Of a stretch of 64,000 bases of DNA, positions 6,100-59,571 are shown in pieces. The stretch covers positions 87,273 to 151,272 of the forward strand of contig CAYVVS010000001.1 of the NCBI GenBank assembly GCA_964454845.1, written 5' to 3'. Origin of the DNA: an uncultured Candidatus Saccharibacteria bacterium (lineage in GTDB: Bacteria > Patescibacteriota > Saccharimonadia > CAILAD01 > GCA-016700035). Position 1 is the stretch's first letter, and each line of letters starts with the position of its first letter. Below the pieces are notes generated by a model. That model ran no database searches and was not told the DNA's origin. It saw only the letters and a list, made by a program, of their open reading frames with translations. The position numbers and the translations under genes were made by a program.

Positions 6100-6202
6100 G
6101 TGCGCTAGAAACAGAAAACCCCTTACGCTTCCAGGTTGCATCAGATATAATAAACACAAGCTTTTTATTGAAGGCAGCTGTGCCTGTATGCAAACCAAAG
6201 AT

Positions 6203-12301: not shown

Positions 12302-12302
12302 C

Positions 12303-32343: not shown

Positions 32344-33183
32344 TCAATATTTTAGGATGTCGTTTTTCTCGGTTATCATCTTGATTGAGAATTGTGCGGG
32401 CTCTATACGGAATTTTTCCGGTAGATCTTTTGAAAAAGCATCACTCTTGAAGTGGTGGGGAGTGTGAATGTCGATCCTTGAAGCCTGTATGTGAAATACA
32501 TCTTCTGTGGCTTTTTGAACAGTTCTTGTTTTCAATTTTTTCTCCAAGAGGTTTGTGTCTTTACCCTGTAGTTTAGAAGCGTGAACAGTGTGTCTTTTTT
32601 CGGCTGTAATTGTAATAACATGCTGTTCTCGACTGGTAATATCTTCATGGACACTGATCGTTACGAGTTCGACTGGAGCATCTATGCGAAGTTCGCTGCC
32701 ATTTGGAGTGTAAACCAGAAAACGGCTCGGGGCTTCGCTGGGGGCATCATTTTTTATACGTAGTGTATGGGTAAACCAAATTGCTTCAGCGCAGACGAAG
32801 GCTTTTTGCTCGGTTATCTTTCGGGCAGCAATGGCCTGTATAGATCGCTTGAGGCCACGTTCCATGTATGGGGCGATACGCCAAGTGAGGGTGAGTTTTT
32901 CTGGGGGCGATATATGAGCAAAGATCGGCGTCCCGTTTGGGCGGGCGTGCGATAAGCGGCAGGATTCAGAAATAATCGTGTCGAGCCAGGCAAATCCTCC
33001 TAGAGCAATGATGGTATCGGGGCTTTTTGCGATGGCCTGCTCCAGCTTTTGAGAGAGTTCTTTCTTGTTAGATAGTTGGATGATATCGACTTCAAGACGT
33101 GCCTCTAGGGCGAGTTTTTGTAAGAGTTGCACTAATTTTTGTGTGTCAAATGGTAGTCCTGGCTCTATGAACAGACTATTCAT
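32344..33183 (-). CDS. Hypothetical protein
   Basis: 280-aa ORF from MNSLFIEPG. A weak ALGG… segment is reminiscent of a kinase fold but not convincing. Confidence 0.35.
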   Translation of the reverse strand: MNSLFIEPGLPFDTQKLVQLLQKLALEARLEVDIIQLSNKKELSQKLEQAIAKSPDTIIALGGFAWLDTIISESCRLSHARPNGTPIFAHISPPEKLTLTWRIAPYMERGLKRSIQAIAARKITEQKAFVCAEAIWFTHTLRIKNDAPSEAPSRFLVYTPNGSELRIDAPVELVTISVHEDITSREQHVITITAEKRHTVHASKLQGKDTNLLEKKLKTRTVQKATEDVFHIQASRIDIHTPHHFKSDAFSKDLPEKFRIEPAQFSIKMITEKNDILKY

Positions 33184-38294: not shown

Positions 38295-39516
38295 GCTTCT
38301 TGAGCGTTCTCATGTAAATTTCTTCAAGCTTTGCTGCCTGTCTGTTAATGGTAAATTCAGAGGCCTTACTGTGTGCAGCATCTCCCATTCGCTTGCGTAA
38401 GCTTGGGTCATGAGCCAGTTTTAGTAGGGCTTCGCTAAATGCTTCGGGTTTTGGAGGGGCAAGTATACCGGAGACATTATTTTCGGCAACCAAGGAAATG
38501 TCGGGGTCGGAGTATACGAGGGGGACACGCATGTAGGCGGCTTCATTGAGAACGAGTGCTTGAGTGTCGGTCATAGATGGAAATGCAAAAATATCGGCGT
38601 AATTATAGCGCTCTAGTGCCTCTTTTCTTGGAAGGCCTCCAGTGGTGACGACGGCTCGACTAATGCCAAGTTCGCGAACTCGAGAGCGCATATGTGGGAG
38701 ATATGGGCCTGGGCCCACAACACATAGCCGAAGTGAGCTATCTTGCTTGTACGCAAGAGAAAACGCTTTTAAGAGTACATTCATATTCTTTTCTTTTGCT
38801 ACTCGACCAACGTATAAGATTGTTGTAGTTTTATCATCTTTTTGTTGTGTTGAGGTGCCATAGCGAGGGAATTCTTCAGGGTTCATCCCTGTTGGCAAGA
38901 TACTAATCGGTTTTGTAACCCCGTAGCTCACGAGTTTAGCTTGCATCTTTGACGAGGGAACAATGACTTCGTCAAAATGATCTACGGATGCCCGAATAAG
39001 ATTTTGCACCATTGTCTGATTCCATTGCTCGAAGGAGCGTTTTGGCCTTACTCCCTGTAGGGTTTCTGGCCAGGCTTTTGGTTGATTTACAAGTAAGGGG
39101 CCGATAAGTGAGGCGGTGAGAATGCCGGCCCACATACCGCGATACACTTTAGCGTACTCCTCGTAGTCGGTATGGTAGCTAAAGACGGATGGAATATTTC
39201 CCTCAAACATGAGGCGCATGCCAGCAAGTCCGGTTTGCCCATTGGTGTGGAAGTGGTAGAGGTCGGCGTTAAGGTCTTTAATAATGCGGCCGTATTTTGG
39301 CGTGAGTATGCCGTCCCGTAAGCCTTTATGCCATACACTCGGGATTGAAGGTAGGCGAATGACGTCAGGATGGTCGTGTACTGGTACATCGCTGCCTGGG
39401 GCAACGATATAGACCCGGTGGCCTCGGTCGCGCAGGGCATTGGCAAAAAGATCAATGGCGGCAGTAACCCCGTTGAGTGATGGGGCATAAAAGTCTGTAA
39501 AAAATACGATTTTCAT
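38287..39516 (-). CDS. Glycosyltransferase family 4
   Basis: GT4 N- and C-domains (…FAFPSMTDTQALVLNEAAYMRVPLV…). Confidence 0.65.
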   Translation of the reverse strand: MKIVFFTDFYAPSLNGVTAAIDLFANALRDRGHRVYIVAPGSDVPVHDHPDVIRLPSIPSVWHKGLRDGILTPKYGRIIKDLNADLYHFHTNGQTGLAGMRLMFEGNIPSVFSYHTDYEEYAKVYRGMWAGILTASLIGPLLVNQPKAWPETLQGVRPKRSFEQWNQTMVQNLIRASVDHFDEVIVPSSKMQAKLVSYGVTKPISILPTGMNPEEFPRYGTSTQQKDDKTTTILYVGRVAKEKNMNVLLKAFSLAYKQDSSLRLCVVGPGPYLPHMRSRVRELGISRAVVTTGGLPRKEALERYNYADIFAFPSMTDTQALVLNEAAYMRVPLVYSDPDISLVAENNVSGILAPPKPEAFSEALLKLAHDPSLRKRMGDAAHSKASEFTINRQAAKLEEIYMRTLKKHG

Positions 39517-44120: not shown

Positions 44121-44444
44121 ATGATCCTCACTATTATTGGCTTTTTGCTGATAGCAATCTCAGCTACTTACGCGATTGCAGCGTATGCTGTCTTGGAGGA
44201 GAAGCCTCCTCCGGCGGAGAAACTGGCGGAGAAATTGCGAATTAGTTTGGCTGTGGCATGCGTTGTTCTGGTTGTGGGTCTGATTTTTCTCAGAAGTCTT
44301 CCCATGGCTCTTGCAACGATTGGCACTCTGTTATTGGTGCTGCCATTGCGGTGGAAATACAGTGTCACCTTGTTCATCGCGGTGACACTGATGGGGCTCT
44401 CAATCGTAATCCAATATAGCTGGGTTCTTCAGCCCTCCTCCTAG
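44121..44444 (+). CDS. Hypothetical small membrane protein (3 TM)
   Basis: Hydrophobic 107-aa ORF. GGCTACAAT -10-like motif 49 nt upstream. Confidence 0.4.
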   Translation: MILTIIGFLLIAISATYAIAAYAVLEEKPPPAEKLAEKLRISLAVACVVLVVGLIFLRSLPMALATIGTLLLVLPLRWKYSVTLFIAVTLMGLSIVIQYSWVLQPSS

Positions 44445-44454
44445 TTGAGGAGGG

Positions 44455-46212
44455 CTAATTCGTAACTACGACAGTTTTTTCACTGGACATACTTTGTATG
44501 CCCATATTGGTAGTGATGTAGTTTTGGAGTATCCAGGTTCCTACGGTCAGGCCAGCAGTCGCAATATCTTGCTGCAGGCTTCGTGTGCCGCTTGGAGCGA
44601 GTCCGGTAGAAATACTAACCATTTGATTAGTAGAAATATTTATAGCACGTGTTGTGCATATTACATCAATAAGTACAGATGAACATGTGGAGTTAAATTT
44701 ATCATATTCATAACCTGTGAGCTCTGTATCGAGTTCAGTAAGGGATATGCGCGAGGCAGTGAGCGGTGAGCCGATAGTCGATGTAGCAGATACATCATTA
44801 AGGGTTGCATAAGTATTTAGAAGGCCATATCCATAGAGACTGGTGAAGTTTGCATTGTTCATGGACGCAAGTTTAGTTGTAGTTCCGGTTAGGGCAGCGC
44901 TGACTTGAGCGGGGGTGAGTGTAGGATTTTGCGAAAGCAGCAGTGCTGCGGCACCAGCAACCAGCGGACTAGAGAATGATGTCCCACTTAGGCCACAAGC
45001 ATTGAGGCCTGTTTGTGCAGAGTTCGTCCAGACAGTTGAGCACAGCCCAGAACCAGGAGCTACTAGGTCCAAATTACTCCCATAGTTAGAAAAATTAGCA
45101 AGCGAATTATTGGAGTTCGTGGCGCCGACTGCAATTACACTTGGGTAGCGAGCTGGGTAGGAAATACAGTTACAGCCATCGTTTCCAGATGCGGCCACCA
45201 CGACCACATCATTTTGTGTTGCGTAATCTATTTGTTCGGACACCAAAGGATCATCTGCTGCTGCACCTAAGCTCATATTAATAATGTCGGTACCATGATC
45301 TACTGCGTAACGTATGCCAAGTGCTACAGATATTGTGTAGCCATCTCCGTAATCATCAAGAGCTTGAATAGGGAGAATTTTTGCGCCCCAGCTCATGCCT
45401 GCTCCACCTGAGCCATTATTGGCTTGCGCTGCTATCAGGCTGGAAACAGCAGTGCCATGATAGGCTCCGCTTGCATTTGGGGCGGTTTGTCCCGCACTTA
45501 CATCGTTTGTATCACCGCTAAAATTCCAACCAAGGTAGTTATCTGTATATCCATCATTGTCATCGTCGATATTATTACAACGTTTATTTACAGATAGGGA
45601 GCGACTTGTACAGTTAGGAGCTGGGCCTTCATTGGTGGTCGCACCAACTTCTTCGCTGTTTTCAGCCCACTTACTTGCTAGGTCTGTGACTTGCACGCCA
45701 AAGCCAGTATCTATTACAGCTACTTTCACGGAGGAATTACCAGGTTGATGGTTCCAAGCTGGAAGAGTATTTGTATTTGTGAAGTGCCACTGATTAGTAG
45801 TGAGAGGGTCGGTTGGTGTCAGAAAAGCCGAGTAGCGCTGGTTAATAAATGTTCTTACTCCCGAAGAGGCAATGATATTTTGAGCGCGTACACCGTATAC
45901 GCCTAGGGCTTCGATCGGTGTTAGGTCTGACTCAGATAGTGCGTTTTGGGCTATAAACCTTTGTTTTGCGGCCTCACTTTCGAAACGAACTAGCTGTGGT
46001 AGCTGCTTTTCGTCTTTTTTTGCAAGCGGTTCAGCGAGTTTTGGGTTAGTGGAGTTTTTTGGCGATTGAGTGGCTTGGGTTGTAGGTGTGCTAGAAGTAT
46101 CTTGTCGGGACTGATGTTGGGGAGCCTGGGTGGGGGCAGCGAGAGCCGCCATTGATAGACACAATATGGTTACGTATATGAGGCTTCGCTGAATTTTATT
46201 TGGCTGGCTCAT
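44455..46212 (-). CDS. Secreted subtilisin-like serine protease (peptidase S8)
   Basis: Signal peptide. Catalytic triad motifs D (…VAVIDTG…), H (…AYHGTAVSSLIAA…) and S (…GLSGTSFSSPLVAGAAALLLS…). ATG overlaps the stop of the upstream giant kinase gene (ATGA on the minus strand). Confidence 0.8.
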   Translation of the reverse strand: MSQPNKIQRSLIYVTILCLSMAALAAPTQAPQHQSRQDTSSTPTTQATQSPKNSTNPKLAEPLAKKDEKQLPQLVRFESEAAKQRFIAQNALSESDLTPIEALGVYGVRAQNIIASSGVRTFINQRYSAFLTPTDPLTTNQWHFTNTNTLPAWNHQPGNSSVKVAVIDTGFGVQVTDLASKWAENSEEVGATTNEGPAPNCTSRSLSVNKRCNNIDDDNDGYTDNYLGWNFSGDTNDVSAGQTAPNASGAYHGTAVSSLIAAQANNGSGGAGMSWGAKILPIQALDDYGDGYTISVALGIRYAVDHGTDIINMSLGAAADDPLVSEQIDYATQNDVVVVAASGNDGCNCISYPARYPSVIAVGATNSNNSLANFSNYGSNLDLVAPGSGLCSTVWTNSAQTGLNACGLSGTSFSSPLVAGAAALLLSQNPTLTPAQVSAALTGTTTKLASMNNANFTSLYGYGLLNTYATLNDVSATSTIGSPLTASRISLTELDTELTGYEYDKFNSTCSSVLIDVICTTRAINISTNQMVSISTGLAPSGTRSLQQDIATAGLTVGTWILQNYITTNMGIQSMSSEKTVVVTN

Positions 46213-49200
46213 TGCTTTACCCCTGGTAGTGTTAGGGTAACTGTCGTGCCTTTTTTCTGAGTGGAGGTTATGCGCAATTCGCCTCCAATCTGCTCTAGGA
46301 GAACTTTATCTAGATAGAGATTAAGACCAATGCCTTCGTAGTCGAATTTCAGCACATCGGTAGCGCGTGAGAACGGTGTCATCAGTTGTGAGAGCTTTGC
46401 AGTATCGATGCCGATACCACTATCTTCAAATGTAATTGTAGTGCCGCGCTTGGTGTTTTTGGTGTACACTTTGAGGCTTCCGCCATCTTTATTGAACTTA
46501 ACGGCGTTATCTACGATTGAGTTTATCAGTTGCTCAATGGCTTCTTGGGTGAGTGGGGCAGTGATATTTACTGGTACCTGGCTTGTTACGGTTATTTTCT
46601 TATCTGATACCGCGTTTTTTTGGGCGTTGAGCGCAGATTCTATAACTGGCGCGATGCTAATTGGAACAGGGAGAACTTCGAGCGGTCGGGAGAAGTTGAT
46701 GAGTCGGCCAAATTTCTTGAGGACGTCTTCGAGCATGGTGCTGCCATTTTGCAGTGTTTTTTGTGCGGGATCGGTTTTTGGAATGTCTTTCGTTAAGGCC
46801 TTTACGAGCCCAAGGTCAGCATTAAGGTCGCTATAGCTTTGCGTAATAAAGGCTACTCGTCGTGCCAAAATATCAGCCTCTAGCGTGAGCTGGTGCTTGA
46901 GGGCATCGTGGGAAGCTTGATTGCGTTTATAAGAGTGCCATGAGAGGGCAAGTAAGCCAATTCCTAGTACTAACGCAGTAATTTGTGCAACGATTAACGC
47001 GAAACTGAGTGAATAACGATCTGTTGCGGTGAAGAGTAGATTAAGAATAAACAGAATAAGTACCACAATTCCAGATGGGACCACGACAAAGATACTGAGC
47101 AGAGGATTTTTGAGACGGAGCTTATCGAGCTCTGTTGTGCTTTCTGCAACGCGAGAGGTCGTTTTTTGGCTTTCGGTTACAAGTTTCCTAATATCATCGG
47201 CCAAGTTTTTGATAGCTAGGTTGAGTTTGTTGATATTCGTCTGTGGGACAGCTTTTGTTGAGGCGAGGAGCTCCACACTGGCCTGCAGGATGTTAACTGG
47301 AGTATTAAGGTAGTGACTAGTAAGGGCGACAAAGTTTTGGCTTGCCTCTTTGGTGCTGTGATAGCGTTCAATTATGCCGCGTACTTTGGCGATAGTGCGG
47401 TATTCAAGCCATGCCTGACGTGCGTAGAGTACCGCTAGAGCGATAAGAACAAGAATGATGAAGAATGGCAAAGCTAGGGCCACAGCGTTTGGTGTCATGC
47501 GTATGGTGTTCAATACCCCTGCAGGTATAAAGCCGGTGAGGAAATTTGATTCAACAGTGACTGGGGGTGTGTCTGCTTTAGGTATTTTTACACCTTCTGG
47601 CGGGTATTTAGGGAATAGCGGGTTAGGGAGCTTAGGCTCAGGCTGATTGGTTGGCGATGGGGACGGTGATGGACTTGGATTGCTTGAAGGCGATGGTGAT
47701 GGAGCAATAGAGGGGCTAGGAGTGGTATTCGTGGTAACGGTTGGATTAGGAGTTGGTGTACTACTAGGTGCAGTGTAGTTGTAGGTGGAAATCGAGATAT
47801 TGTTGAAGGGTAAGGTGTAGATATCTGTCGAAGAAGAAGGCTGACTAAAATCTCCTCCAAACGCCATGAAAATGCCTGATAGAACCTCAAACTGGTTATC
47901 AAACTCTACTTTTTCTCGATGAGCATCCATAAAGTTAATTCCAAAGCTTTTAAAACTAGCCCCAGTGGGGTAGCTAGAGTTAGCGGTGCCAATTATGTCA
48001 TATGTTAGTGACTCACCTTGTTCTAAGGTGATATTCGTAGTAGGTAGACACACTGCAATCTTGCTAGTCGGGTAGAACTGTGCAAGATAGTCAAACTCAC
48101 TGGAGTTCCAATCTGCACAAGCTACAGAACTGGAATTTGTCGTTGAGAAGGTGAAGTTGGTGGGTATGATGTGTAATGATGCTGGAATTACATTTTGTAG
48201 CGTGGTGGTGCCCGGACCGTTATTCGTGAGGGTGTTTCGGTACGTAATGGTGTCACCGGCCTTAACTTCTCCCGAGTTAAGTAAGGTTGTATTGATTGAG
48301 ACATCTATTTCATAGCTTAATTCAGCTTCATTGCTAGGTTCACTCACCCCATCATTACTCACTGCATAGACTCGGAAGTAGTAGTGGGTGGCGGGGTTTA
48401 GCCCTGTAATGTCTTCATATGTGTTAGGCGACACAGTATTAGGGTAGGGTGTCCAGTCGCTATCGTTAGCGCTTCGAAACTCAATTAAGTAATCGGTAAC
48501 TGGACTACTTCCTTGGTTGGATGGAGCACTCCAGTGGAGGGTTGCATTCGTGCCGTCAGCGTTATCTATACTTAGGTTTTCGGGTGGTCCAGGAGGTGTT
48601 ACTGCACAGGCTGATGTAGCAAAAGAAACCGTTTGGCCCACGCCTCCCAGTACATCATTGCTTGTAGTTGAAAAGGCGCGTACATAGTAGTTTGTGTCAC
48701 ATAGTAGGCTATCCGCTGTAGTAAGGCTGATGCCATATGAGAACTTCTTGATAGGGTCATTTGAGTACATATTCACCACATAGGCATTGTCGCTCCTGTC
48801 GAATGAAATATCTGAGGCGTTAATAAGCTGGTTAGTGCCGTTGCCAGTTGAACCCCAAGAGTCTATGTAATTACCGTACGAGTTAAAGCGCTGTATGCGA
48901 TTATCGGTATTATCGGTCGTATATAAATTATCTTGGCTGTCAGTCTCTATGCCTGCAATCTCTGTAAATTGCCCGTTGCCTGTACCTGCAGAGCCCCATT
49001 GCAAGAGGTAATTGCCGTTGCTATCAAACTTTTGAATACGATAGTTATTTATGTCATATACGTAAACATTATTGGCTGAATCTATCGCTATGTGCCAAGC
49101 ACCAGAGAATTGCCCGTTGCCTGTACCTGCAGAGCCCCATTGCAAGAGGTAATTGCCGTTGCTATCAAACTTTTGAATACGATTAGCATTGATGTCAGAG

Positions 49201-52200
49201 ATGTAGACATTGTTACTTGCATCGATAGCGATTCCTCTAGGGCCTACGTAGCTAAACTGACCGTCTCCAGAGCCTTGAGAGCCCCAATCTAGAATGTAGT
49301 TTCCTTCGGAGTCAAACTTTTGAATACGATGATTGTATGTGTCGACGACATAAATATTGTTATAGCTATCAATGCCCATTGCTCTCGGGCTGTTGAATTG
49401 ACCGGGTGCCGATCCGCAGCTGCCCCATTCACTCAGAATGCCACCCGAGGAGTCGAATTTGCTCACTTTGCAGTTGTTCATATCTAGTGTGTAAGCATTG
49501 TCGCTGGCGTCATGCTCGATAGCGAGTAGCCCTAGGTTTTGCCCGTAGCCACTTCCGTATTCACCCCAAGATTCGGCTTCGGTATATGCTGGGGGTGTGG
49601 AATCGATATCCAAGTCTGTTCCGGTGTTAAAGTTGGGGTCGGTGCTCCATTGAAAGCCACGAGAAGCTAGCCATCGAGGGCTGACAAGCCCCGAGAATGT
49701 TGCCGAGTCGGCGTCGATATCAGAAGGTTCAAGAGTCGTGACTTGCGGGGTACAGCCAACTGTTGTAAAGGTTGCATCGTCACCATATCCTGTACTGTTC
49801 CAGTCTACAGCGAAAGCCCGGTAATGGTAGGTGGTACCGCACTCCAGCGATGAGGCAGTGAGGCTGTAGCTGCCCATGGTAAATGGCGGACTTTCAAGCG
49901 AATATTTGATTATAGCGTCACCATAATTGACTGCATATACATAGCCATTCGAGTCAACTTCAATGTCATTTAGTGCTGAGATCTCAGAATGTTCAGTAAA
50001 TGAGTGGAGTAGTAATGAGTCGCCATCCGGGCTAAAGCGCTGAACTTGCTTCGAGAACTCTGATGTATAAATTGATCCATCTGGAGCAAAGGCAACACCG
50101 TTAAGGCCTGTAAATTGACCAGCCTCAGATCCAGTATCCCCCCAGTGATTGAGTGGGTTACCATTTGTATCAAATGTCTGCACCCGTGCTCCTTCCCACT
50201 CGGCCGTAGCAATTATCCCATCGCGGTAACTAACGTCATTTAGCCCATAGAATTGGCCTACGCCGGTTCCGAAATTGCCCCATTGCAAGAGGTAATTGCC
50301 GTTGCTATCAAATTTTTGGATCCGGTTATTCCCGCTGTCTGCAACGTACATATTATTTGCTTCGTCGAAAGCAATACTATAAGGAGTGGAAAACTGTCCA
50401 TTACCAGATCCGTAGATTCCAATAATTGCAATAAAATTACCATTAGAATCAAACTTTTGAATGCGATGGTTTAAGGCATCAACAACGTAAACGTAGCCAT
50501 TCGTATCTACGGCAATTTCGCGTAGATCGCCAAATTGCCCAGGTCCTGATCCGGGTGAACCCCATGTAAGTAGGTGGTTTCCATTTGCATCAAGCTTTTG
50601 CACGCGAGTGTTATACCATTCGACAGTATAGATATCTCCTGTAGGGGCAATTGCTATATGGGGTGATTGCAGCTGTCCGTCTTGGTCCCCCCATTCGCTT
50701 ATACTTTGCTCAAACTGAAGTTGACTTGTCGCAGGTTCTGAGAGCATACTGCCGTAATTTGTTGTCTTGCCATACTGTATGCCACGAGAGATTAGGGGTG
50801 ATCCACCGGTAGAGGTGATGCTTCCATGGAGTGTCGCTGCCGAACTTGAAATATTTGAAGAAGATAGAGTTGCAACCTCCAGCCCTGTACTGCTACAAGC
50901 ATCTGTTGTAAAGGATACATCGTTTCCATAGGAGGTACCATCGCCATTTGTCGCGAAGCTACGGTAGTGGTAAGTGGTTCCGCAAGTTAAGTTAGTGAGT
51001 GTCGATGCAAAGCCCTCTGGGTTAAAGGTGGCTGGCTGGTTGAATGTTTTGATGCTGACACTGCCTAGATCGGCTATAACAACCTGGTCATAGGAGTTAA
51101 TGGCAATGCCCCAAGGCGACCAAAACTGCATATCTCCAGGGCCAACGCTCCCAAACTGGGTGATATATGAGCCGGCGTTGCTGAATTTCTGTACCCTAGC
51201 ATTTATCGCATCTTGAACATAAATGTTGTTATTTGAATCTACTGCTAAATGATTAACATTTGAACTGCTAAACTGGTTATTTCCACCTCCAGAGGAGCCC
51301 CATTTCGTAATATATGAGCCGTCTGAGCTAAACTTCTGAATCCGCGGGTTATCGTAGTCAATAATGAAGATATTATCGTAGCTGTCCACAACCATATCGC
51401 CAATCCCATAAAACTGGCCATTTGACGTGCCATATGAGCCCCAGCTTTGGATTAAGTTAAAGTTGCTATCAAATTTTTGTACAAAATTATACGTGTCACC
51501 AGTATAGATATTGCCTTGAGAGTCAACTTCGATAGATATATTGAAGCCAGGTGAGTTTGGAAAACTCCAGGTATTGAGGAGTTCACCGGTAGCTGAATAT
51601 TTACGAACGCCCCCTGTACCTACAACGTAAGCGTTGTTGAGTCCGTCAAAGGCAACGTCATCTTGAGCCCAATCTTGATCTATAGTGTATTTATAGTTAC
51701 CGTATGCATCAAATTTCTGTATGCCAGAGCTTAGTTGGTCATTCTGAACGTACATATTATTGAGGTTATCAACGTAGACTGCATCAGGAGCAGAAAAGGC
51801 CGTATTTCCAAATTGCGTTTGGTAGTTTCCAGTATCATCGAAGACTTGCACGCGACTGTTATAGAAATCGACAGTGTAAATCTTGTCGTTTGTGTTGTTG
51901 TAGATAATACCGCTAACAAATATAAACTCGCCATCACCATTGCCGTACGTACCCCATTGATTATTGAATGCTCTATTGCTATAGATGAATTCTTGTACTC
52001 TTTGATTGCCGAGTGATGTGCCGGCCGAATCCGTAACATATATTGAGCCGCTAATCGGTGAGAAGTTAATCTTCTGCGGATAGCCAAACTGCTTATTGCC
52101 TGAGCCATATGAACCCCACTGGGAGTGGTAAGTCCCGGTGGTGGTAAATTCTTGGATTCGTGAATTGAACGTGTCAACCACTAGGATGCGGTCGAGAAAA

Positions 52201-54158
52201 TTGTCGTAAGTGATGCCCCGCGGTACATTAAACTGCCCATTGCCCGATCCAGAAGATCCCCATTTGGTGATGAACGTACCGTTTGCATCAAATTTTTGAA
52301 CACGGTTATTGTTTGAATCAGTAACATACACATTGCCACCCGAGTCGATTGCGATAGAATTTGGCCCGTTAAATTGTCCATTTCCCGAGCCGTCTGATCC
52401 CCATTTGGTGATGAACGTACCGTTTGCATCAAATTTTTGAATTCGGTTATTATTAGTGTCCGCTACATAGATGTTTCCTGATGTATCGATTGCGATACCG
52501 TTTGGCGCTCTCAAGTCTCCGTCGCGAGAGCCGGTCCAGTTCTGGTCTATTGGGTTTCCTATTGTTCCGAGCAGATTGCCGTTGACATCATATTTTTTAA
52601 TGTTGTTCGTGGTATATCGGCTGTCAGTAACATAGATATTGCCACTTAAGTCTTGAGCTATGTCTTGAGGTCGATTGAGTCCAGTTCCAGTTGTATTACT
52701 GGCGAGCGTAAAACTAGAAGGAGAGTTGGGCGTAAGATTTACAGTATTGCCATAGCTTGTATCGTTGCCCCACTGGAAGCCGCGAGCTGTTGTTGCAGTA
52801 TTGAGCGTGCTCCATTGTGTGCCGTTAAGAGTAGCGAGATTTTGGGTTAGATCCGTTGCTGCACCGGTTGTTACAGATGGGGTAGTGCGCAAGGTGGGGT
52901 AGCCACCTAGTGTTGTTTTCCATACAACGTTAAAGTCCCAGGTGTTGAGTGGAGTTGCAGCTGAGTTTCCGAAGAAATAGTTGGGGGAACCAGAACTTAT
53001 GTTTACACTAGTGCACTGGGCCGCTACATTACTAACGCACTCAGTGGCCGTCGTACGAGAAACGTCAAAAAAGTTATTTCTCCCAGAAATTGCTCCGGCG
53101 TCTAAATTTTCGGCCCTTCCTACGAGACCACCCTTATAGCTAGGAGCACCGGAGGTAGTTATTTGAGTGGCTGCAAAACTATTTTCAACAACAGTCCCGG
53201 TGTTACTCATGCTAGCGATGAGTCCACCCCCTGTGTCTCCCCAGCCATAGCCGTTGTTTGTTGAGATACTACCGTGAGCATATGAGTTAGAAACCTTACC
53301 GTATTGCAGGTCTGCTACAAGGCCACCTGCTTTGTCCCCAGTAAGCACGGCATTTGCATAACTGTTAGTGATGCTAGATTGGTAGGCGGATGATGATTCA
53401 ACTATCATTCCCACAAGGCCACCTACCTGACCTCCAGTGGAGCTGACTGTACCGCTATAGCTTGATTGGTCTAGCTGGCTATTTTGTAGCAAGCTTCCGA
53501 TTAGGCCACCGCTGCCTGCACCATTGACGGAACCGGATGCGTTTACCTGTCTAACTGTAGTTGCATTGCTGGCTACACCTACGACTACGCCAGTATAGCC
53601 ACAGTTCGTGACAGGGCACCCTATTATTGATGGCTTGGTGAATACGATGTTTTTGATCAGAGCTGAATTTGTATAGCCAAAAAGACCCGAATGAGCATTG
53701 CTTGTTCCGCTGCTCTTATTGATGTAGAGGTTGCTGATTCTTAGATTACGTCCATCTAGTGAGCCGCTAAATGGATTGCTGCTATTTTGACCAACCGGGA
53801 TAAATCCGGTATTGGAGTTCCAGCTAGAGCTAGCTGAACAATCAATATCACTAACGAGTGCGTAGTGACTCGTGAGAGATTGCTGCATTTCTTGCAGCTG
53901 AGAGCAGTTGGCAATTTGGAAGGGGTCTAGCGTAGTGCCAGTACCTGAGCCAGAGAAAGCCTTGCTCCCGTGTTTATCATTAATAAAACCCGCATACAGT
54001 AAGGTAATTAGGATGATTATTACGGCTCCCACAGCCGTAATAATCTTTAAGTTATTTTTCTTTTTTAGGGGGCGTACTGCCCGTTCCACAGATGAATAGA
54101 CCCAAATTGGTCCAATGGGCGTTTTTATGGTTTTCAACTTGGTCTTTTTTTGCGGCAT
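46209..54158 (-). CDS. Giant (2649 aa) membrane histidine kinase with GLUG-repeat / NHL beta-propeller / FN3 ectodomain
   Basis: N-terminal basic segment and TM anchor. GLUG-type repeats (SGLFG, GGLIG, GGLVG…). Many NHL repeats (…YVTDSNNNRVQKFDANGTFITKWGSSGSGNGQF…), interspersed FN3-like units, a Pro/Ser-rich stalk and TM segments. Cytoplasmic H-box-like SHYLNTPVNIL and complete HATPase_c (N-box DNAVKF, G1 DSGIGI, G2 GIGLNL). Confidence 0.8.
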   Translation of the reverse strand: MPQKKTKLKTIKTPIGPIWVYSSVERAVRPLKKKNNLKIITAVGAVIIILITLLYAGFINDKHGSKAFSGSGTGTTLDPFQIANCSQLQEMQQSLTSHYALVSDIDCSASSSWNSNTGFIPVGQNSSNPFSGSLDGRNLRISNLYINKSSGTSNAHSGLFGYTNSALIKNIVFTKPSIIGCPVTNCGYTGVVVGVASNATTVRQVNASGSVNGAGSGGLIGSLLQNSQLDQSSYSGTVSSTGGQVGGLVGMIVESSSAYQSSITNSYANAVLTGDKAGGLVADLQYGKVSNSYAHGSISTNNGYGWGDTGGGLIASMSNTGTVVENSFAATQITTSGAPSYKGGLVGRAENLDAGAISGRNNFFDVSRTTATECVSNVAAQCTSVNISSGSPNYFFGNSAATPLNTWDFNVVWKTTLGGYPTLRTTPSVTTGAATDLTQNLATLNGTQWSTLNTATTARGFQWGNDTSYGNTVNLTPNSPSSFTLASNTTGTGLNRPQDIAQDLSGNIYVTDSRYTTNNIKKYDVNGNLLGTIGNPIDQNWTGSRDGDLRAPNGIAIDTSGNIYVADTNNNRIQKFDANGTFITKWGSDGSGNGQFNGPNSIAIDSGGNVYVTDSNNNRVQKFDANGTFITKWGSSGSGNGQFNVPRGITYDNFLDRILVVDTFNSRIQEFTTTGTYHSQWGSYGSGNKQFGYPQKINFSPISGSIYVTDSAGTSLGNQRVQEFIYSNRAFNNQWGTYGNGDGEFIFVSGIIYNNTNDKIYTVDFYNSRVQVFDDTGNYQTQFGNTAFSAPDAVYVDNLNNMYVQNDQLSSGIQKFDAYGNYKYTIDQDWAQDDVAFDGLNNAYVVGTGGVRKYSATGELLNTWSFPNSPGFNISIEVDSQGNIYTGDTYNFVQKFDSNFNLIQSWGSYGTSNGQFYGIGDMVVDSYDNIFIIDYDNPRIQKFSSDGSYITKWGSSGGGNNQFSSSNVNHLAVDSNNNIYVQDAINARVQKFSNAGSYITQFGSVGPGDMQFWSPWGIAINSYDQVVIADLGSVSIKTFNQPATFNPEGFASTLTNLTCGTTYHYRSFATNGDGTSYGNDVSFTTDACSSTGLEVATLSSSNISSSAATLHGSITSTGGSPLISRGIQYGKTTNYGSMLSEPATSQLQFEQSISEWGDQDGQLQSPHIAIAPTGDIYTVEWYNTRVQKLDANGNHLLTWGSPGSGPGQFGDLREIAVDTNGYVYVVDALNHRIQKFDSNGNFIAIIGIYGSGNGQFSTPYSIAFDEANNMYVADSGNNRIQKFDSNGNYLLQWGNFGTGVGQFYGLNDVSYRDGIIATAEWEGARVQTFDTNGNPLNHWGDTGSEAGQFTGLNGVAFAPDGSIYTSEFSKQVQRFSPDGDSLLLHSFTEHSEISALNDIEVDSNGYVYAVNYGDAIIKYSLESPPFTMGSYSLTASSLECGTTYHYRAFAVDWNSTGYGDDATFTTVGCTPQVTTLEPSDIDADSATFSGLVSPRWLASRGFQWSTDPNFNTGTDLDIDSTPPAYTEAESWGEYGSGYGQNLGLLAIEHDASDNAYTLDMNNCKVSKFDSSGGILSEWGSCGSAPGQFNSPRAMGIDSYNNIYVVDTYNHRIQKFDSEGNYILDWGSQGSGDGQFSYVGPRGIAIDASNNVYISDINANRIQKFDSNGNYLLQWGSAGTGNGQFSGAWHIAIDSANNVYVYDINNYRIQKFDSNGNYLLQWGSAGTGNGQFTEIAGIETDSQDNLYTTDNTDNRIQRFNSYGNYIDSWGSTGNGTNQLINASDISFDRSDNAYVVNMYSNDPIKKFSYGISLTTADSLLCDTNYYVRAFSTTSNDVLGGVGQTVSFATSACAVTPPGPPENLSIDNADGTNATLHWSAPSNQGSSPVTDYLIEFRSANDSDWTPYPNTVSPNTYEDITGLNPATHYYFRVYAVSNDGVSEPSNEAELSYEIDVSINTTLLNSGEVKAGDTITYRNTLTNNGPGTTTLQNVIPASLHIIPTNFTFSTTNSSSVACADWNSSEFDYLAQFYPTSKIAVCLPTTNITLEQGESLTYDIIGTANSSYPTGASFKSFGINFMDAHREKVEFDNQFEVLSGIFMAFGGDFSQPSSSTDIYTLPFNNISISTYNYTAPSSTPTPNPTVTTNTTPSPSIAPSPSPSSNPSPSPSPSPTNQPEPKLPNPLFPKYPPEGVKIPKADTPPVTVESNFLTGFIPAGVLNTIRMTPNAVALALPFFIILVLIALAVLYARQAWLEYRTIAKVRGIIERYHSTKEASQNFVALTSHYLNTPVNILQASVELLASTKAVPQTNINKLNLAIKNLADDIRKLVTESQKTTSRVAESTTELDKLRLKNPLLSIFVVVPSGIVVLILFILNLLFTATDRYSLSFALIVAQITALVLGIGLLALSWHSYKRNQASHDALKHQLTLEADILARRVAFITQSYSDLNADLGLVKALTKDIPKTDPAQKTLQNGSTMLEDVLKKFGRLINFSRPLEVLPVPISIAPVIESALNAQKNAVSDKKITVTSQVPVNITAPLTQEAIEQLINSIVDNAVKFNKDGGSLKVYTKNTKRGTTITFEDSGIGIDTAKLSQLMTPFSRATDVLKFDYEGIGLNLYLDKVLLEQIGGELRITSTQKKGTTVTLTLPGVKQ

Positions 54159-54322
54159 TAGTATTAGAATTTATGCGTGTTTCTGTATTACTCTCTACTT
54201 TACATATATATGACTCTAGGGACAATAGTTTTTATGCTTAATTCAGCTCTTTTGACGCAAAAAAGTATTCATTTTGCTCTCCTTGGTGTGATATAGTGAT
54301 AGTGAGTTAGCATAAGCGTTTC

Positions 54323-57300
54323 ATGCGCAAAAAAGTCATGACAAAATCCAAAAAGCAAATCCCACAGAAATCTACTCGTTTAGTTGACGCAGTTCGTCAG
54401 TCGAGTGTTGCTGTGCGTAAAAACTCTCAATCGTTTGAGGCTATTCAACACAAGACGAGGCTCGGTGTAGTTTACATTGCAGTAAAGGACTTTGTTCGAC
54501 GTGCGCCTGAGAATCTTAAGGTGGGTGTGAGCAGAGCGGGGAGAAGCAGGCAGCGCATACTTGGAAAAATAGCTGCTAGGCTACCAAAGATAGCTCTTCC
54601 ACAATTTCAAGCTTCCAACAGGTTAAAAAGCGTTGTAGCCAGTACATCATTAGTTGTCATGATGGTACTGATGTTCTTTAATATGGGGGTCCATAATGTT
54701 GCGCGCGCTTTTGATACGCTCAATCAATCCGATTGGAGTGGCGGACAAGGTATAAGTCCGGTTAATCAGTATGAGGAGAAAGATGGCAATGTTGTAACTG
54801 CTACAGCGGGTCAGTTGAGCTTGAGTGGTGGAGCTTCTGCCTGGTGCAGTACCGCAAACTGCAATACGAATTGGACACGACGCAAGGTTCTCGTACCACG
54901 TGGCGGCATAAATGACACGGATATGACTTATGCGCAAGTTCAATTGACTGTTGAATATGAAAATGAAATGAAGTCTGATTTTAGCGACTTACGTTTTACG
55001 AATCGGTATAGCAATCAAGATGTTCCGTATTGGGTTATGCGTAAGACAGACGGTGTATCTGCGACTGTCTTTTTGAAGATACAGCTTTCAAGTGGTGGCG
55101 TGGATAGTCATACGTATATGTACTACGGAAATGCGGCGGCCACCTCTCTATCGTCTAAGGGAGGCGTGTTTGATCTGTATGACTCTTACGACACGGGTAG
55201 CCTTCAGGGTAACTATTTTGATATCGATGGTGCTGATGGGGAGATTGATGGACTTGGAGGTAAGCTAACCCGGCTTGATTATGGTATTAGTCACCCCGGC
55301 CCATTTTCTCGAGATCGCACTCGAGTATACGAAGCCGACCTTAAGTTAGATCTCTCTTCATATACATGTGGCGACTCTGCCGGTGTGGGATCTATAGAAA
55401 TAGGCTTCCAGGGTGGTACGGCAGAGCTCTACTTTGATATGCCTGCAAATTGCGATAGCAATGGCAAATATTGGAGGGTTTCTGGTGCTACTAACGGGAG
55501 TGAGTCGGTAAATTTTCCAGACTCTACTGCCTATCATTTTACCTCGAATATATATGTGCGCCTGCGGTTAGTGGCGTATCAGGATGGCGGGCATGCTTAT
55601 TTCTTCAGTCGGGATAATGGAGAAACATATACGGCTTTCCCCGGTGTTAATACCGGTATAAATAGTGATAATTTTCCTACGGAATATTACTTAAGCAATG
55701 GCAATGCTGTAACGACATATCGTCATGTGGTTGCGTACCAGGGACTACTGGATAGAAGTACGTCGCTTAATTTTGATGCATCTGTTGAAGAATATGTAAA
55801 TGGCAGAGTCGGTGGATTTACGAGTGTTGAGTATGACTTAGGCTCTGACAGGACGTTCTTTGGAGATCTAAATATTACCTACACCGGTACGGGTGCTGTC
55901 GGAGTGTACATATCGGGGTCTGACACCCCAGGAGGTACACTTGATTCAATCTCTATGTATGTTAGTTGTCCGTTCGTTAAAAATACCACAGCTATTTCTT
56001 CGGATTGTCTACCCGCAGGGAGTCGTTACGTGAGGTACTATTTGCTGCTTTCTTCTGATGCTGCAAATAGCCTCGTTATTCAGGATGTATCACTTGAATA
56101 CTCAATTGATGTAGACAGTCCAACGATAGTCAGTGGTGTGCAGACGCGTAGAACGAGTAATAATGCGGTAATCTCGACCGGCTGGATAAATGAGACACCA
56201 AAATTTAGTTGGAATGCCTCTGTCGATGGTGTAGATGGTTCGGGCATTGCTGGATATTGTTTGTATTTTGGTACTGATAGCGGCGCTGATCTAAGTACAA
56301 CCCAAGGTTTGTTACCTACAACAAGCCCATATGATACTGGAGGATTATGCCAATACGCCATACAGGCCACGTCGCTAGACTTGTCGCAACTAACATTACA
56401 GAGTTCGCTGACTACAAATACACAATACCACCTAAAAATACAGCCATTTGATAATGCTGGGAATCTGGCGACCGCAACAACGAGTGCTCTTGGCTATGAT
56501 ACTGATACTCCTGGACCATATACGACTGCGTTTGGGCCTAACGGGTATGTCAATTCGCCAATACAGCCAGTAAACTGGGCAAAAGACGCACCAGCGATGG
56601 TAGTTGACGATGGTGGTTCCGGGGTTGCGGGCATTAAATATTGTGTCTTTAGCTACGCGACTGGTGATGGGTGTAGTCTATTTGGTGGTTCGCCATCTGA
56701 TTTTCCTTGGTATGGACCGGCTCGCACCAATAGCCTTCCAAACGATCCTATAGATGTATATAGTTTTTCGAGCGGTGGTTTTAACCTTGTAGACGATGAT
56801 TTGGCCCGTATGACCGATGAAGGGCTTAATGGTGTTGTTTTGCTCCTGATTGATAACGCGGGTAACGTTGCGCAATTTGGTTCAGGTGGAGCTCCTGTAA
56901 TTATTAATGTTACTCAGCAGCCTCCATCAGCTCCGCAAAATTTACAGGTAAGTCCTAGTAGTAATAATGAAAACGCGTTCTCATTCACATGGGCAGCTCC
57001 CGCGACCGCATCAGGCCCAACTGGTCAAGTGGATTATTGTTGGACGGTAAACGTATCCATAGCTTCCGATGGCAGCAATTGTAATTGGACCGGTCAAGGT
57101 ATTACACAGCTCGCACAGGGAGCTTACGCCACGCAACAGGGTAGCAATACACTGTATTTGATGGCCAAGGATCAGTCGCAGAATTTTTCTAATGCCAATG
57201 TGACGAGTGTGAATTTCACAGCAACAACTGTGGCGCCCGGGCCACCTCAGAACCTCGAGCTTTCAGATGTGTCAATTCGCGCTACGAGTAGCTGGAAGAT

Positions 57301-58771
57301 TGCGCTTAGCTGGAGTGCCCCGCAGCTTCCCGGTTCCGGAATTGCGAGCTATAAGATTTATCGCTCAACCAATAATGTGAACTTTACAGAAGTAGGAACA
57401 ACATCAAGTACGAATCTAAGCTTTATCGATTCTGGCCTCTCGCAGACTGACTACTATTATTATGTGAAAGCTTGTGATGATGCCGATAGTTGCAGTGTGG
57501 CAAGTAATACGGAGACCAAGTATCCAAACGGGCGTTATACTACCCCGGCTCGTTTGACTGACGATACGGATCAACCAAAGATTAGGGATATTGGTACGCG
57601 TAAAGCTACTATTTATTGGTTTACGGATAGGGCAAGTGATTCAAAGATTGCCTATGGCACTGCACCTGGTCAGTACTTCCCAGAAGAGGTCGGGAATTCA
57701 ACACAGGATTCATCTCATGTTGTAAATCTTACAAACTTAGAGCCAGGTAAGACGTATTACTATGTGGCTCGTTGGACTGACGAAGATGGGAATACGGGCA
57801 TTTCCCAGGAGAGGGCGTTTACAACACTGCCGGCACCAACTGTGCGGGAAGTTTCAGCTTCAAACCTTACAATAAGCTCTGCTGCTGTTAATTTTACAAC
57901 TGAAAATGCATACAAGGCTAATGTATACTTCGGTACCAGCGATGCTTTTGGGGGCGTGAAGAGCATAAATACATCAATTTCTTCATCAAGCTACAGCTTG
58001 AGCTTGAATGATTTGCAAGATGGTCAAAAATATTTCTACAAAATAAGCACCGTAGATGCGGATGGCTATGAATATCAGGGTGATATATACAGTTTTACTA
58101 CTCCAGCTCGTCCAAAAATTACGAATTTGCGCTTTGAGACGGTAGAGGGTGAGCCGAGCAGTACCCAAAAAATTGTATGGACAACCAATGTGGCCACTAC
58201 AAGTGAAGTGGTGTATGGGTTGGTTGGGGGAGAGCAATCTGAAGCTGTGAGCTCCACTCTGGTGACGGAACACGAAGTGATAGTTCGTGGTTTGGCGGAC
58301 AACGCTGATTATGAGTTGGTTGCGCGTTCCCGCGACGCTGCCGGTAACCTCGCGGTTTCTGATAAACAGTTCTTTCAAACAGCCGAAGATACACGCGCGC
58401 CAAAAGTCTCAGAATTTAAGGTTGAGACGGATATCCGTGGAACTGGTGGAGAGGCACGTGGGCAGATAATTGTATCGTGGCGCACAGATGAGCCGGCTAC
58501 TAGCCAAGTGGCGTTTGCTAAGGGGCGTACAACAGAGCTCAGTAACCGTTCCTCGCAGGATACACGCTTAACTACTGAGCATGTCGTGGTCGTGTCTGAC
58601 CTTACTACTTCAAGTATCTATCAAGTGCAGGCAGTGTCGGCTGATAAGGCCGGTAACGAGTCGTTTTCCGATGCTCAAACAGCAATTATTGGTCGCGGTA
58701 CTGAAAATATCTTCAGTATCATCTTTAATGCGCTGCAAGCTATCTTTGGCTTTGGGGATACGAATTTATGA
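54323..58771 (+). CDS. Giant surface protein 2 (1482 aa; paralog of giant 1 C-terminal module)
   Basis: Basic N-terminal ~100 aa and one TM helix (SLVVMMVLMFF). Distinct beta-sandwich N-terminal domain (…DLRFTNRYSNQDVPYWV…). From about aa 630, a ~850-aa FN3-rich module collinear and similar to the C-terminal module of giant 1, same C-terminal tail (…IFSIIFNALQAIFGFGDTNL). Stop overlaps the next ATG. Start may be 54338. Confidence 0.8.
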   Translation: MRKKVMTKSKKQIPQKSTRLVDAVRQSSVAVRKNSQSFEAIQHKTRLGVVYIAVKDFVRRAPENLKVGVSRAGRSRQRILGKIAARLPKIALPQFQASNRLKSVVASTSLVVMMVLMFFNMGVHNVARAFDTLNQSDWSGGQGISPVNQYEEKDGNVVTATAGQLSLSGGASAWCSTANCNTNWTRRKVLVPRGGINDTDMTYAQVQLTVEYENEMKSDFSDLRFTNRYSNQDVPYWVMRKTDGVSATVFLKIQLSSGGVDSHTYMYYGNAAATSLSSKGGVFDLYDSYDTGSLQGNYFDIDGADGEIDGLGGKLTRLDYGISHPGPFSRDRTRVYEADLKLDLSSYTCGDSAGVGSIEIGFQGGTAELYFDMPANCDSNGKYWRVSGATNGSESVNFPDSTAYHFTSNIYVRLRLVAYQDGGHAYFFSRDNGETYTAFPGVNTGINSDNFPTEYYLSNGNAVTTYRHVVAYQGLLDRSTSLNFDASVEEYVNGRVGGFTSVEYDLGSDRTFFGDLNITYTGTGAVGVYISGSDTPGGTLDSISMYVSCPFVKNTTAISSDCLPAGSRYVRYYLLLSSDAANSLVIQDVSLEYSIDVDSPTIVSGVQTRRTSNNAVISTGWINETPKFSWNASVDGVDGSGIAGYCLYFGTDSGADLSTTQGLLPTTSPYDTGGLCQYAIQATSLDLSQLTLQSSLTTNTQYHLKIQPFDNAGNLATATTSALGYDTDTPGPYTTAFGPNGYVNSPIQPVNWAKDAPAMVVDDGGSGVAGIKYCVFSYATGDGCSLFGGSPSDFPWYGPARTNSLPNDPIDVYSFSSGGFNLVDDDLARMTDEGLNGVVLLLIDNAGNVAQFGSGGAPVIINVTQQPPSAPQNLQVSPSSNNENAFSFTWAAPATASGPTGQVDYCWTVNVSIASDGSNCNWTGQGITQLAQGAYATQQGSNTLYLMAKDQSQNFSNANVTSVNFTATTVAPGPPQNLELSDVSIRATSSWKIALSWSAPQLPGSGIASYKIYRSTNNVNFTEVGTTSSTNLSFIDSGLSQTDYYYYVKACDDADSCSVASNTETKYPNGRYTTPARLTDDTDQPKIRDIGTRKATIYWFTDRASDSKIAYGTAPGQYFPEEVGNSTQDSSHVVNLTNLEPGKTYYYVARWTDEDGNTGISQERAFTTLPAPTVREVSASNLTISSAAVNFTTENAYKANVYFGTSDAFGGVKSINTSISSSSYSLSLNDLQDGQKYFYKISTVDADGYEYQGDIYSFTTPARPKITNLRFETVEGEPSSTQKIVWTTNVATTSEVVYGLVGGEQSEAVSSTLVTEHEVIVRGLADNADYELVARSRDAAGNLAVSDKQFFQTAEDTRAPKVSEFKVETDIRGTGGEARGQIIVSWRTDEPATSQVAFAKGRTTELSNRSSQDTRLTTEHVVVVSDLTTSSIYQVQAVSADKAGNESFSDAQTAIIGRGTENIFSIIFNALQAIFGFGDTNL

Positions 58772-59571
58772 GTCAGTCTCTTGTTTCTTTCCGCGATGTC
58801 TCGCGTGATTTTCGTGCTATAGATGGTACGGTGAGTGTTTTGAAGGATATAAATTTTGAGGTAGAACCTGGTAGTTTTACTATTATTTATGGACCTTCTG
58901 GTAGTGGTAAGACAACAATTTTGAATATGATTTTGGGTCTTTTGCCGCCAACCAAGGGGGATGTCGTGGTGGCCGGGCAAAGCTTGTATGATCTCAATCA
59001 AGATGGTCGTGCAAAGTTTAGGGCCGCACATTATGGTGTGGTGAGCCAAGTGAATAACTGGGTCCTCAGTATGAATGTGCAGGAGAATGTTGCCCTGCCG
59101 TTATATCTTTCGGGTACTCCACGTCATGAAGCACTTAAGAAGGCTGCGGCTAGCATTGAGCGTGTTGGGCTTGCGAAGTATATGCGCTACAATCCGGCAG
59201 TGTTGTCAATTGGTCAACAACAGCGCATTTCTATGGCGCGAGCTACCGTAAAAACACCGCAACTTTTGATAGCTGACGAGCCGACCGGCAACCTTGATAC
59301 CACGAATGGCGACATGATTATGCAGCTGATGACCAGCTTTAGAAATCATGAAAATACTACAGTGATTTTGGTTACACACAATCTTGATTATCTTTCTTTA
59401 AGTAGCCATAGATTATTCTTAAAAGATGGCGTGCTCTCAATTGATGAGGGCGGCTACCAATCCGAAGAAGAGCGTCGTCGCATGCTGATGACAAGCTTCT
59501 TGGAGGTGAATAAGGCGGCTGAAATACAACCAGCAAAAGTTCCTGTAAAGAGAGGTGGTAAACGTGGCTGA
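58768..59571 (+). CDS. ABC transporter ATP-binding protein, MacB/LolD/FtsE family (cassette 2)
   Basis: Walker A GPSGSGKTT, LSIGQQQRIS signature, Walker B LLIADEPT. Paralog of 12303-13142. ATG overlaps the giant-2 stop (ATGA). Confidence 0.85.
   Translation: MSQSLVSFRDVSRDFRAIDGTVSVLKDINFEVEPGSFTIIYGPSGSGKTTILNMILGLLPPTKGDVVVAGQSLYDLNQDGRAKFRAAHYGVVSQVNNWVLSMNVQENVALPLYLSGTPRHEALKKAAASIERVGLAKYMRYNPAVLSIGQQQRISMARATVKTPQLLIADEPTGNLDTTNGDMIMQLMTSFRNHENTTVILVTHNLDYLSLSSHRLFLKDGVLSIDEGGYQSEEERRRMLMTSFLEVNKAAEIQPAKVPVKRGGKRG

Follow-up and report, generated by a model that had tools for sequence, protein, structure and literature searches.

A secreted subtilase behind a giant histidine-kinase-like gene in a Saccharibacteria genome: probably an inherited operon rather than a kinase-protease module

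Bacillus-type subtilisins (subtilisin E and BPN', MEROPS S8A; structures 3whi and 2e1p) carry an N-terminal export signal and an intramolecular-chaperone propeptide ahead of the catalytic domain, and subtilases in general remove their own prodomain. The nearest known subtilase encoded next to a histidine kinase is NisP, the lantibiotic leader peptidase beside NisRK. Here we analyzed a stretch of 64,000 nucleotides from an uncultured Candidatus Saccharibacteria bacterium (GenBank assembly GCA_964454845.1, contig CAYVVS010000001.1; hereafter the window), in which an open reading frame (ORF) for an S8 subtilase (hereafter S8; 44455-46212, minus strand, 585 aa plus stop codon, ATG start) follows a giant histidine-kinase-like ORF (hereafter the kinase; 46209-54158, minus strand, 2649 aa, 7.95 kb). 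An earlier reading of the window, here called the original prediction, suggested that the two form a kinase-protease module in which a co-translated secreted protease would mature, shed or activate the kinase ectodomain or neighboring giant proteins. The reading we prefer, at a probability of roughly 65%, is that the pair is an ancestral, inherited two-gene operon in which S8 is a self-activating exported subtilase, and is not a functional kinase-protease unit.

As with NisP and NisRK, the gene for an exported S8 subtilase here neighbors that for a sensor histidine kinase within a single cluster. The locus differs in that neither a response regulator (no Response_reg domain was found in 35 scanned ORFs) nor LanA, LanB, LanC or LanT genes were seen among the scanned window ORFs, in that the order runs from kinase to protease, and in that the kinase is a 2649-aa NHL-repeat protein and the pair breaks freely in evolution. 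Likeness to the Bacillus-type pre-pro-subtilisins covers the order of the catalytic triad, the oxyanion Asn, about 31% identity in the core, and a predicted N-terminal export signal followed by a propeptide-like domain whose predicted fold would match that of the intramolecular-chaperone propeptide. Unlike those enzymes, S8 has a 40-residue disordered linker between the signal and the propeptide-like domain, an invariant insert of about 50 Cys/Asp-rich residues and, at its C-terminus, an additional beta domain some 105 residues long; it has no match to the Pfam I9 family, comes from a Saccharibacteria host within the Candidate Phyla Radiation (CPR), and sits at the operon tail of a giant kinase.

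Among relatives, the kinase was found directly 5' of S8 in five sampled lineages, namely the window and loci L006, L014, L017 and L097. The junction is an ATGA overlap in three of them (window, L006 and L014) and a stop codon, 2 nt and an ATG in the other two (in L017 the kinase stop is TAG). In L006, S8 is 80% identical to that of the window, and the upstream ORF shares 86% identity with the kinase across 933 aa; in L014 the values are 73% for S8 and 71% for the kinase. L017, recovered by scanning metagenomes for the C-terminal module of the kinase, and L097/L098, reached through protein P0016, show 52-54% identity in the kinase module and 56% in S8. The kinase is absent from the same syntenic locus in at least seven lineages (L001-L003, L004-L005, L007-L008, L009, L012, L016, L099 and L102). 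S8 identity in such kinase-less loci is 80% (L001-L003), 76% (L007/L008), 67% (L012, partial S8) and 66% (L004/L005), and in these four groups no gene lies between the DUF2341 giant and S8 and the whole neighborhood is kept: ArgRS, SmpB, an aldolase, FtsX, an ATP-binding cassette (ABC) gene and the DUF2341 giant on one side, and NUDIX, a histidine phosphatase, glycosyltransferases, GalT and a ComM-like gene on the other. The DUF2341/fn3 giant (54323-58771, plus strand, 1482 aa, assigned by Pfam), first gene of a giant-ABC-FtsX operon, neighbors S8 in most relatives and is absent in L016, L099 and L102.

A scan of genome contigs with S8 gave five loci, none of them with the kinase, and no S8 was found in the 1-6 kb 3' of the 16 remaining full-length kinase-module loci (among them L018-L032; 25-44% identity). 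A more distant sister clade of S8 (L100 and L101; 49-52% identity) lies at a different locus, directly behind a sortase gene. The kinase-protease module of the original prediction was not borne out, the lack of conserved pairing that was named there as refuting it being seen in most lineages: five carry the pair, at least seven syntenic ones do not, the distant kinases show no S8 in those 1-6 kb, and adjacency does not extend across both families, the distant S8 being paired with sortase. In both sister-clade lineages (L100 9275-11764 and L101 4318-6770) the sortase gene lies about 57 nt 5' of S8 and a Na+/H+ exchanger gene lies 3'. These proteins belong to the same S8 family and are similar in domain layout and length; they differ in locus and in having sortase as the upstream partner.

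Between the kinase and the DUF2341 giant lies a divergent intergenic block of 164 bp (54159-54322), marked by its conservation as a putative promoter region common to the kinase-S8 and DUF2341-ABC-FtsX operons. It is about 80-90% identical to the region 5' of S8 in kinase-less relatives, is better conserved than flanking coding DNA, and is kept 5' of S8 in every remnant-bearing lineage, including L016, which is without the DUF2341 operon. The promoter scan gave TTTACA-16-GACAAT on the plus strand of the block; on the minus strand, TTGTCC-17-TAAAGT was read by eye as a candidate and falls below the scan threshold.

Several kinase-less loci retain this block and pieces of the kinase gene, in four arrangements. 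In type A (L001, L008 and L012) the block and the kinase 5' codons are kept, and the S8 ATG comes only a few bases later; in L001, positions 9660-9994 can be aligned to window 54337-54001 (253/329), which takes in the whole 164-bp block and the first 52 or so kinase codons. In type B (L004) kinase codons 1-23 are kept, and the 130 nt ahead of the S8 ATG resemble the final 130 nt of the kinase genes from the window, L006 and L014 in a global, position-restricted DNA alignment (z = 3.5, 4.7 and 2.8, with 0, 0 and 7 of 1000 shuffles reaching the observed score). In protein, this 3' remnant compares as GIDRSQYIKKILLWQ with GIGLNLYLDKVLLEQ in the G2-box region. In type C (L009) the block is retained as far as the start of the kinase, and the junction is again a different one. 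Type D (L016) has lost the DUF2341 operon; here the promoter block survives along with an ORF of 76 codons, whose product begins MLKKYKKL (MPQKKTKLK in the kinase) and whose end overlaps S8 in a GTGA. Unlinked paralogues at L015 conserve both the N-terminal anchor of the kinase and the motif LYAGFINDKHGSKA (LYAGLYNDKHGGKA in L015), and the 5' remnants are therefore kinase-derived and not a captured former untranslated region. In a neighbor-joining tree of S8 proteins, kinase-bearing members are divided between two clades, one with the window, P0002 and P0006 and the other with P0016 and L017, and kinase-less members are interleaved among them. The simplest reading of these sequences would be an ancestral kinase-S8 operon that underwent at least four independent internal deletions, types A to D.

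Small ORFs remain at three of the deleted loci (L001 9840-10004, L004 9771-10004 and L016 9774-10004; 54, 77 and 76 codons) and end in ATGA or GTGA overlaps with S8. They are probably not conserved as leader peptides, the frame being broken in L008, and they may couple S8 translation. The 54-codon ORF of L001 was considered as a fusion of the kinase N- and C-termini, and this was rejected, since the DNA is collinear with codons 1-55 only and the frame is shifted through a hairpin; on that alignment it is a decaying remnant and not a conserved leader peptide. The hairpin is an inverted repeat with a 13-bp stem (54015-54045, minus strand, kinase codons 38-48), which in the window encodes the transmembrane segment IITAVGAVII. 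In L001 (about 9950-9985), L008 and L012 the repeat is conserved, with 2-3 pairs that are compensatory, at a distance of about 20 nt 5' of the S8 ATG, and it may be an RNA or operator element; an Rfam search of the intergenic and hairpin region gave no match.

Ratios of nonsynonymous to synonymous substitution (dN/dS, Nei-Gojobori) for S8 were 0.10-0.11 against kinase-bearing relatives and 0.12-0.16 against kinase-less relatives, and 0.092 between the kinase-less L001 and L008; the kinase C-terminus gave 0.076 between the window and L006. Judged by these ratios, both genes are functional where present, and constraint on S8 does not relax after kinase loss. The strongest argument against a separate S8 promoter within the kinase 3' end is that the type-A deletions removed that whole 3' end without harm to S8. 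The placing of S8 as distal gene of the kinase operon, also part of the original prediction, thus held, S8 lying in kinase-deleted relatives directly behind the kept kinase promoter and 5' end. Co-transcription of kinase and S8 from the kinase promoter would on this comparative evidence be well supported.

At the junction itself, the minus strand reads ...GGG GTA AAG CAA TGA for the end of the kinase and ATG AGC CAG for the start of S8, with 4 bases common to both (ATGA, 46209-46212), as the ORF list and the sequence both confirm. Such 4-nt overlaps occur between eight pairs of same-strand neighbors in the window (3302-3305, 13139-13142, 20075-20078, 25573-25576, 32344-32347, 39513-39516, 46209-46212 and 58768-58771), and because of this the kinase/S8 overlap is routine operon packing, unexceptional in the window. 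A Shine-Dalgarno-like AGGGG (46220-46224, minus strand) lies 7 nt 5' of the S8 ATG within the final kinase codons and would serve S8 translation; GGAG or GAGG stands at the equivalent position in L006 and L014. On the minus strand, a scan of 44300-47200 found no sigma-70-like sites, and no terminator-like sites were found around the junction, so that the two genes form an operon pair by their same-strand stop/start overlap with no promoter or terminator seen between them. The ATG at 46210-46212 is supported as the S8 start because a hydrophobic N-terminal helix (residues 7-23) follows it and homologues begin at the equivalent position.

S8 is a member of the Peptidase S8 family by profile, by triad order and oxyanion Asn, and by its predicted subtilisin alpha/beta fold. 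The Pfam profile PF00082 (Peptidase_S8) matched residues 160-463 with 178.7 bits against a cut-off of 21.8 and covered profile positions 2-288 of 288. Homologues numbered 4238, the closest from Saccharibacteria/Patescibacteria, and an AlphaFold2 (AF2) model built on the homologue alignment had a mean predicted local distance difference test score (pLDDT) of 87.5. The catalytic domain (residues 160-463; 44824-45735, minus strand; Pfam, alignment and phmmer) carries Asp168 (VAVIDTG), His252 (YHGT), the oxyanion Asn344 (SGNDG) and Ser412 (GTSFSSP), all invariant in 70 aligned homologues, and phmmer matched its core to subtilisin BPN'/Savinase at E ~1e-36. The best Foldseek matches in the PDB were unautoprocessed pro-subtilisin E (3whi), pro-Tk-subtilisin (2e1p), PfSUB1 with its prodomain, and fervidolysin; against subtilisins the target-normalized template modelling (TM) score was 0.83-0.92 with E ~1e-23.

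From the N-terminus, residues 1-30 (MSQPNKIQRSLIYVTILCLSMAALAAPTQA; 46123-46212, minus strand) have the charge pattern of a signal peptide or signal anchor, with a positively charged N-region followed by the hydrophobic helix at 7-23 in the AF2 model; in homologues a comparable hydrophobic stretch precedes a conserved A-P motif, and a Pro at +1 makes the predicted signal cleavage site uncertain. Together with the Pfam match, this helix bears out the part of the original prediction that regarded S8 as an exported subtilase, as far as profile and model can tell. Residues 31-69 (46006-46122, minus strand) form a low-complexity, disordered linker rich in Pro, Thr, Gln and Ser, with pLDDT <50 at residues 29-68, and are the most variable part of the alignment. 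Residues 70-130 (45823-46005, minus strand) are predicted to fold as a propeptide-like alpha/beta domain with high-confidence elements E73-77, H80-89, E97-100, E105-108, E119-123 and E126-129. Foldseek aligned 420-465 columns of S8 with pro-enzymes and ~335 with mature subtilisins, ~90-130 more in the former, in a comparison of whole chains. A search of residues 58-155 with Pfam Inhibitor_I9 (PF05922) gave no match even at E<=10. The propeptide/inhibitor domain that the original prediction named as worth looking for thus found a counterpart in the predicted fold and none in the Pfam family, and the fold suggests a propeptide-like N-terminal domain.

Between Asp168 and His252 lies an insert of about 50 Cys/Asp-rich residues (~185-245; window ~45480-45660). 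Its motif PNCTSR..L..K.CNNIDDDNDGY is invariant across all 70 family members, a Pfam search of the insert gave no match, and in sequence it looks like a disulfide-stapled calcium-binding loop. Residues 480-585 (44458-44775, minus strand) form in the AF2 model a beta-rich C-terminal domain, with strands at 507-584 and pLDDT ~90; a Pfam search of this domain gave no match, and among homologues Cys510 is conserved and Cys519 nearly invariant. No C-terminal transmembrane helix or LPXTG motif was found in the S8 sequence, which ends ...SSEKTVVVTN with no hydrophobic segment. Taken together, sequence and model look like those of a complete, self-sufficient pre-pro-subtilase. Fervidolysin (1r6v), Bacillus Vpr (8jmw) and Tk-SP (3afg) likewise have a propeptide, a catalytic domain and one or more C-terminal beta domains, and aligned with S8 over 483-601 Foldseek columns. 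Their arrangement of the C-terminal domain differs from that of S8, because the TM-scores were low and the root-mean-square deviation high (14-20 Å) over whole chains, with identity of 18-21%. The best NCBIfam model for S8 was mycosin (MycP, TIGR03921; 177.9 bits), a membrane-proximal S8 protease of envelope machinery in monoderms. Assignment as a mycosin of the type VII secretion system (T7SS) was rejected, since the score lies below the cut-off of 278.75, S8 has no C-terminal transmembrane anchor, and no ESX/T7SS families were seen among the scanned window ORFs. A literature search on subtilisins of Saccharibacteria returned nothing relevant.

For the inherited operon, the course of expression we propose is that transcription would start in the block at 54159-54322 and read through the kinase gene into S8, whose translation would begin at the ATGA, taken up by ribosomes that have just finished the kinase, directed by the Shine-Dalgarno-like AGGGG, or both. 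Each deletion of the kinase body would have kept the promoter, the kinase start region and S8, so that S8 expression could continue. Once exported, S8 would remove its own prodomain and act alone outside the cell, its likeliest roles being the processing or turnover of surface proteins or the digestion of external or host proteins. The other obvious role for such an enzyme would be to scavenge protein for an epibiont that depends on amino acids. The sortase-S8 pair of the sister clade hints, loosely, at surface-protein handling as the theme of the family and not kinase signalling. Where it is kept, the kinase would be a separate, orphan surface sensor.

The evidence bears differently on three other explanations. 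Had S8 a promoter inside the kinase 3' end, the ATGA would be compact packing with neither co-transcription nor coupling. This would suit a genome in which the 4-nt overlap is the default junction and an S8 gene whose Shine-Dalgarno-like motif makes re-initiation not strictly needed, and a scan with the sigma-70 consensus only could have missed a Saccharibacteria promoter. We nevertheless regard such independent expression as unlikely, given that S8 stayed under purifying selection in L001, L008 and L012 after the whole kinase 3' end was lost, that the promoter block is kept 5' of S8 in every remnant-bearing lineage, even those without the divergent operon, and that no promoter-like site was seen on the coding strand over 44300-47200. 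That the kinase was inserted horizontally between the S8 promoter and start, as a young accident, was suggested by the first relatives examined, which are syntenic without kinase at 80% and 66% S8 identity, by the rarity of the kinase C-terminal module in the protein database, and by L099 and L102, which hold no remnant. It was rejected as a recent event because the same junction position is occupied in L006, L014, L017 and L097, the last two belonging to a second, basal clade, and because kinase-less loci carry kinase 5' codons and L004 also 3' codons. The kinase N-terminus is moreover the conserved part of a gene family found elsewhere, and GC content across the kinase gene (0.44-0.47) is unremarkable beside the range in the window (0.44-0.50). 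For the crown clade a recent insertion is largely refuted, and as a general account it is extremely improbable.

The dedicated kinase-protease module draws on a tight junction kept in five lineages at 56-80% S8 identity, on purifying selection on both genes, on the prediction that both products lie outside the cell, and on the long Pro/Thr-rich (PT-rich) stalk of the giant as a possible protease target. It fits poorly with an S8 that stays intact, and just as strongly constrained by purifying selection, in seven or more kinase-deleted lineages, with the loss of the DUF2341 giant as well in L016, L099 and L102, with the 16 distant kinase loci without S8 in the 1-6 kb downstream, with the link of the sister clade to sortase, and with a predicted propeptide-like domain of its own, by which S8 would need no partner for folding. 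We hold it to be quite unlikely: S8 outlives the kinase in most lineages, the giants are dispensable and distant members of the two families are unlinked. A narrower form, in which S8 is a dedicated sheddase or maturase of the kinase in those lineages that have both genes and stalk cleavage, by releasing or unmasking the ectodomain, switches a kinase with a split DHp domain, is a long shot. If true, the locus would encode a surface sensor gated by a protease in a CPR epibiont, with the kinase deletions marking lost host-specific sensing and the protease kept for a second, general job.

Several points weigh against the inherited operon with a self-activating S8. Of the kinase-bearing loci only the window is complete, the other four ending at contig ends. 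The 3' remnant of L004, compared as protein with the whole kinase, is non-significant (36/300 shuffles reach the score), and a search for remnants in L099 and L102 found nothing. The tree is a simple neighbor-joining tree of one protein without support values, and the deepest node could be kinase-less with one early gain. We infer both the promoter and the 7.9-kb read-through from conservation, and the sigma-70 restriction of the scan applies here too. The propeptide of S8 is read from a predicted fold that Pfam I9 does not match. A tight junction in five lineages and strong purifying selection on both genes would also fit a functional partnership.

Read as an inherited operon, the locus would be a natural experiment in which a 7.9-kb surface-sensor gene was repeatedly deleted and its promoter reused for the downstream gene. 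Repeated loss of the kinase would fit the idea that the giant surface proteins of epibionts are fast-turnover, dispensable host-interaction genes, and S8, retained throughout the subclade, would be likelier than the giants to have a core role outside the cell, for example in nutrition or surface maturation. The locus should not be put forward as the discovery of a signalling device made of kinase and protease, and S8 is best regarded as an ordinary, uncharacterized secreted subtilase.

Pfam found NHL repeats, fn3 and HATPase_c in the giant kinase. Its order is an N-terminal transmembrane anchor, dozens of NHL blades, fn3, a DUF11-like region, the PT-rich stalk at about residues 2125-2200, a transmembrane helix, an H-box helix, two further transmembrane helices, a second helix without His (FITQSYSDL) and an intact HATPase_c. 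The putative phospho-acceptor is His2282 (codon at 47313-47315, minus strand) in the H-box SHYLNTP (FVALTSHYLNTP), assigned by motif conservation. The HATPase_c domain (residues 2538-2645; 46224-46547, minus strand) matched PF02518 with 67.7 bits against a cut-off of 26.4, and its N, G1 and G2 boxes are intact and conserved in 20 homologues; Pfam HisKA gave no match on the giant kinase. The layout of H-box, membrane hairpin and ATPase, with an ATPase-proximal helix without His, is conserved in the same number of kinase homologues. By its ATPase and H-box the protein is kinase-like, and its motif order is not that of a canonical DHp; the DHp domain looks as if a membrane hairpin had split it. 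An architecture with a membrane hairpin between the H-box helix and the ATPase looks undescribed, and a literature search on NHL histidine kinases of Saccharibacteria returned nothing relevant.

Over kinase residues 2181-2649 (window 46209-47618), SHYLxTP is conserved in 20 metagenome homologues at 25-86% identity. In L097 (2-4051) the ectodomain is rearranged, NHL repeats being followed by a region that resembles window residues 80-423, and the C-terminal kinase module is collinear with that of the window (46209-54158); the ectodomain therefore appears to evolve by domain shuffling. A protein-database search with the kinase C-terminal module returned P0121, P0122 and generic kinases, and neither the window kinase nor its L006 and L014 relatives. 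The window S8 is indexed there (P0001) and the neighboring kinase was not returned, so that the protein collection seems to lack products that are giant or cut at contig ends.

L015 1-11785 (CP064998.1, a 916-kb genome) holds tandem paralogues of the NHL/DUF285/fn3 giant kinase family. The C-terminal ends of two of these are split off as small ORFs of their own, including a 97-aa piece of HATPase_c, and a short version, P0121, has 594 aa with fn3 and kinase; the split and short copies may be frameshifted or decaying. Within the window, two paralogous operons of a giant, an ABC ATPase and an FtsX/MacB permease lie at 6089-14410 and 54323-60847, the giant of the former being a 2070-aa Laminin_G_3/fn3 protein and that of the latter the 1482-aa DUF2341/fn3 protein. 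A 747-aa ORF (60850-63093) follows the second of these operons, and its positional equivalents in L007 and L008 carry Big_1 and CarboxypepD_reg domains.

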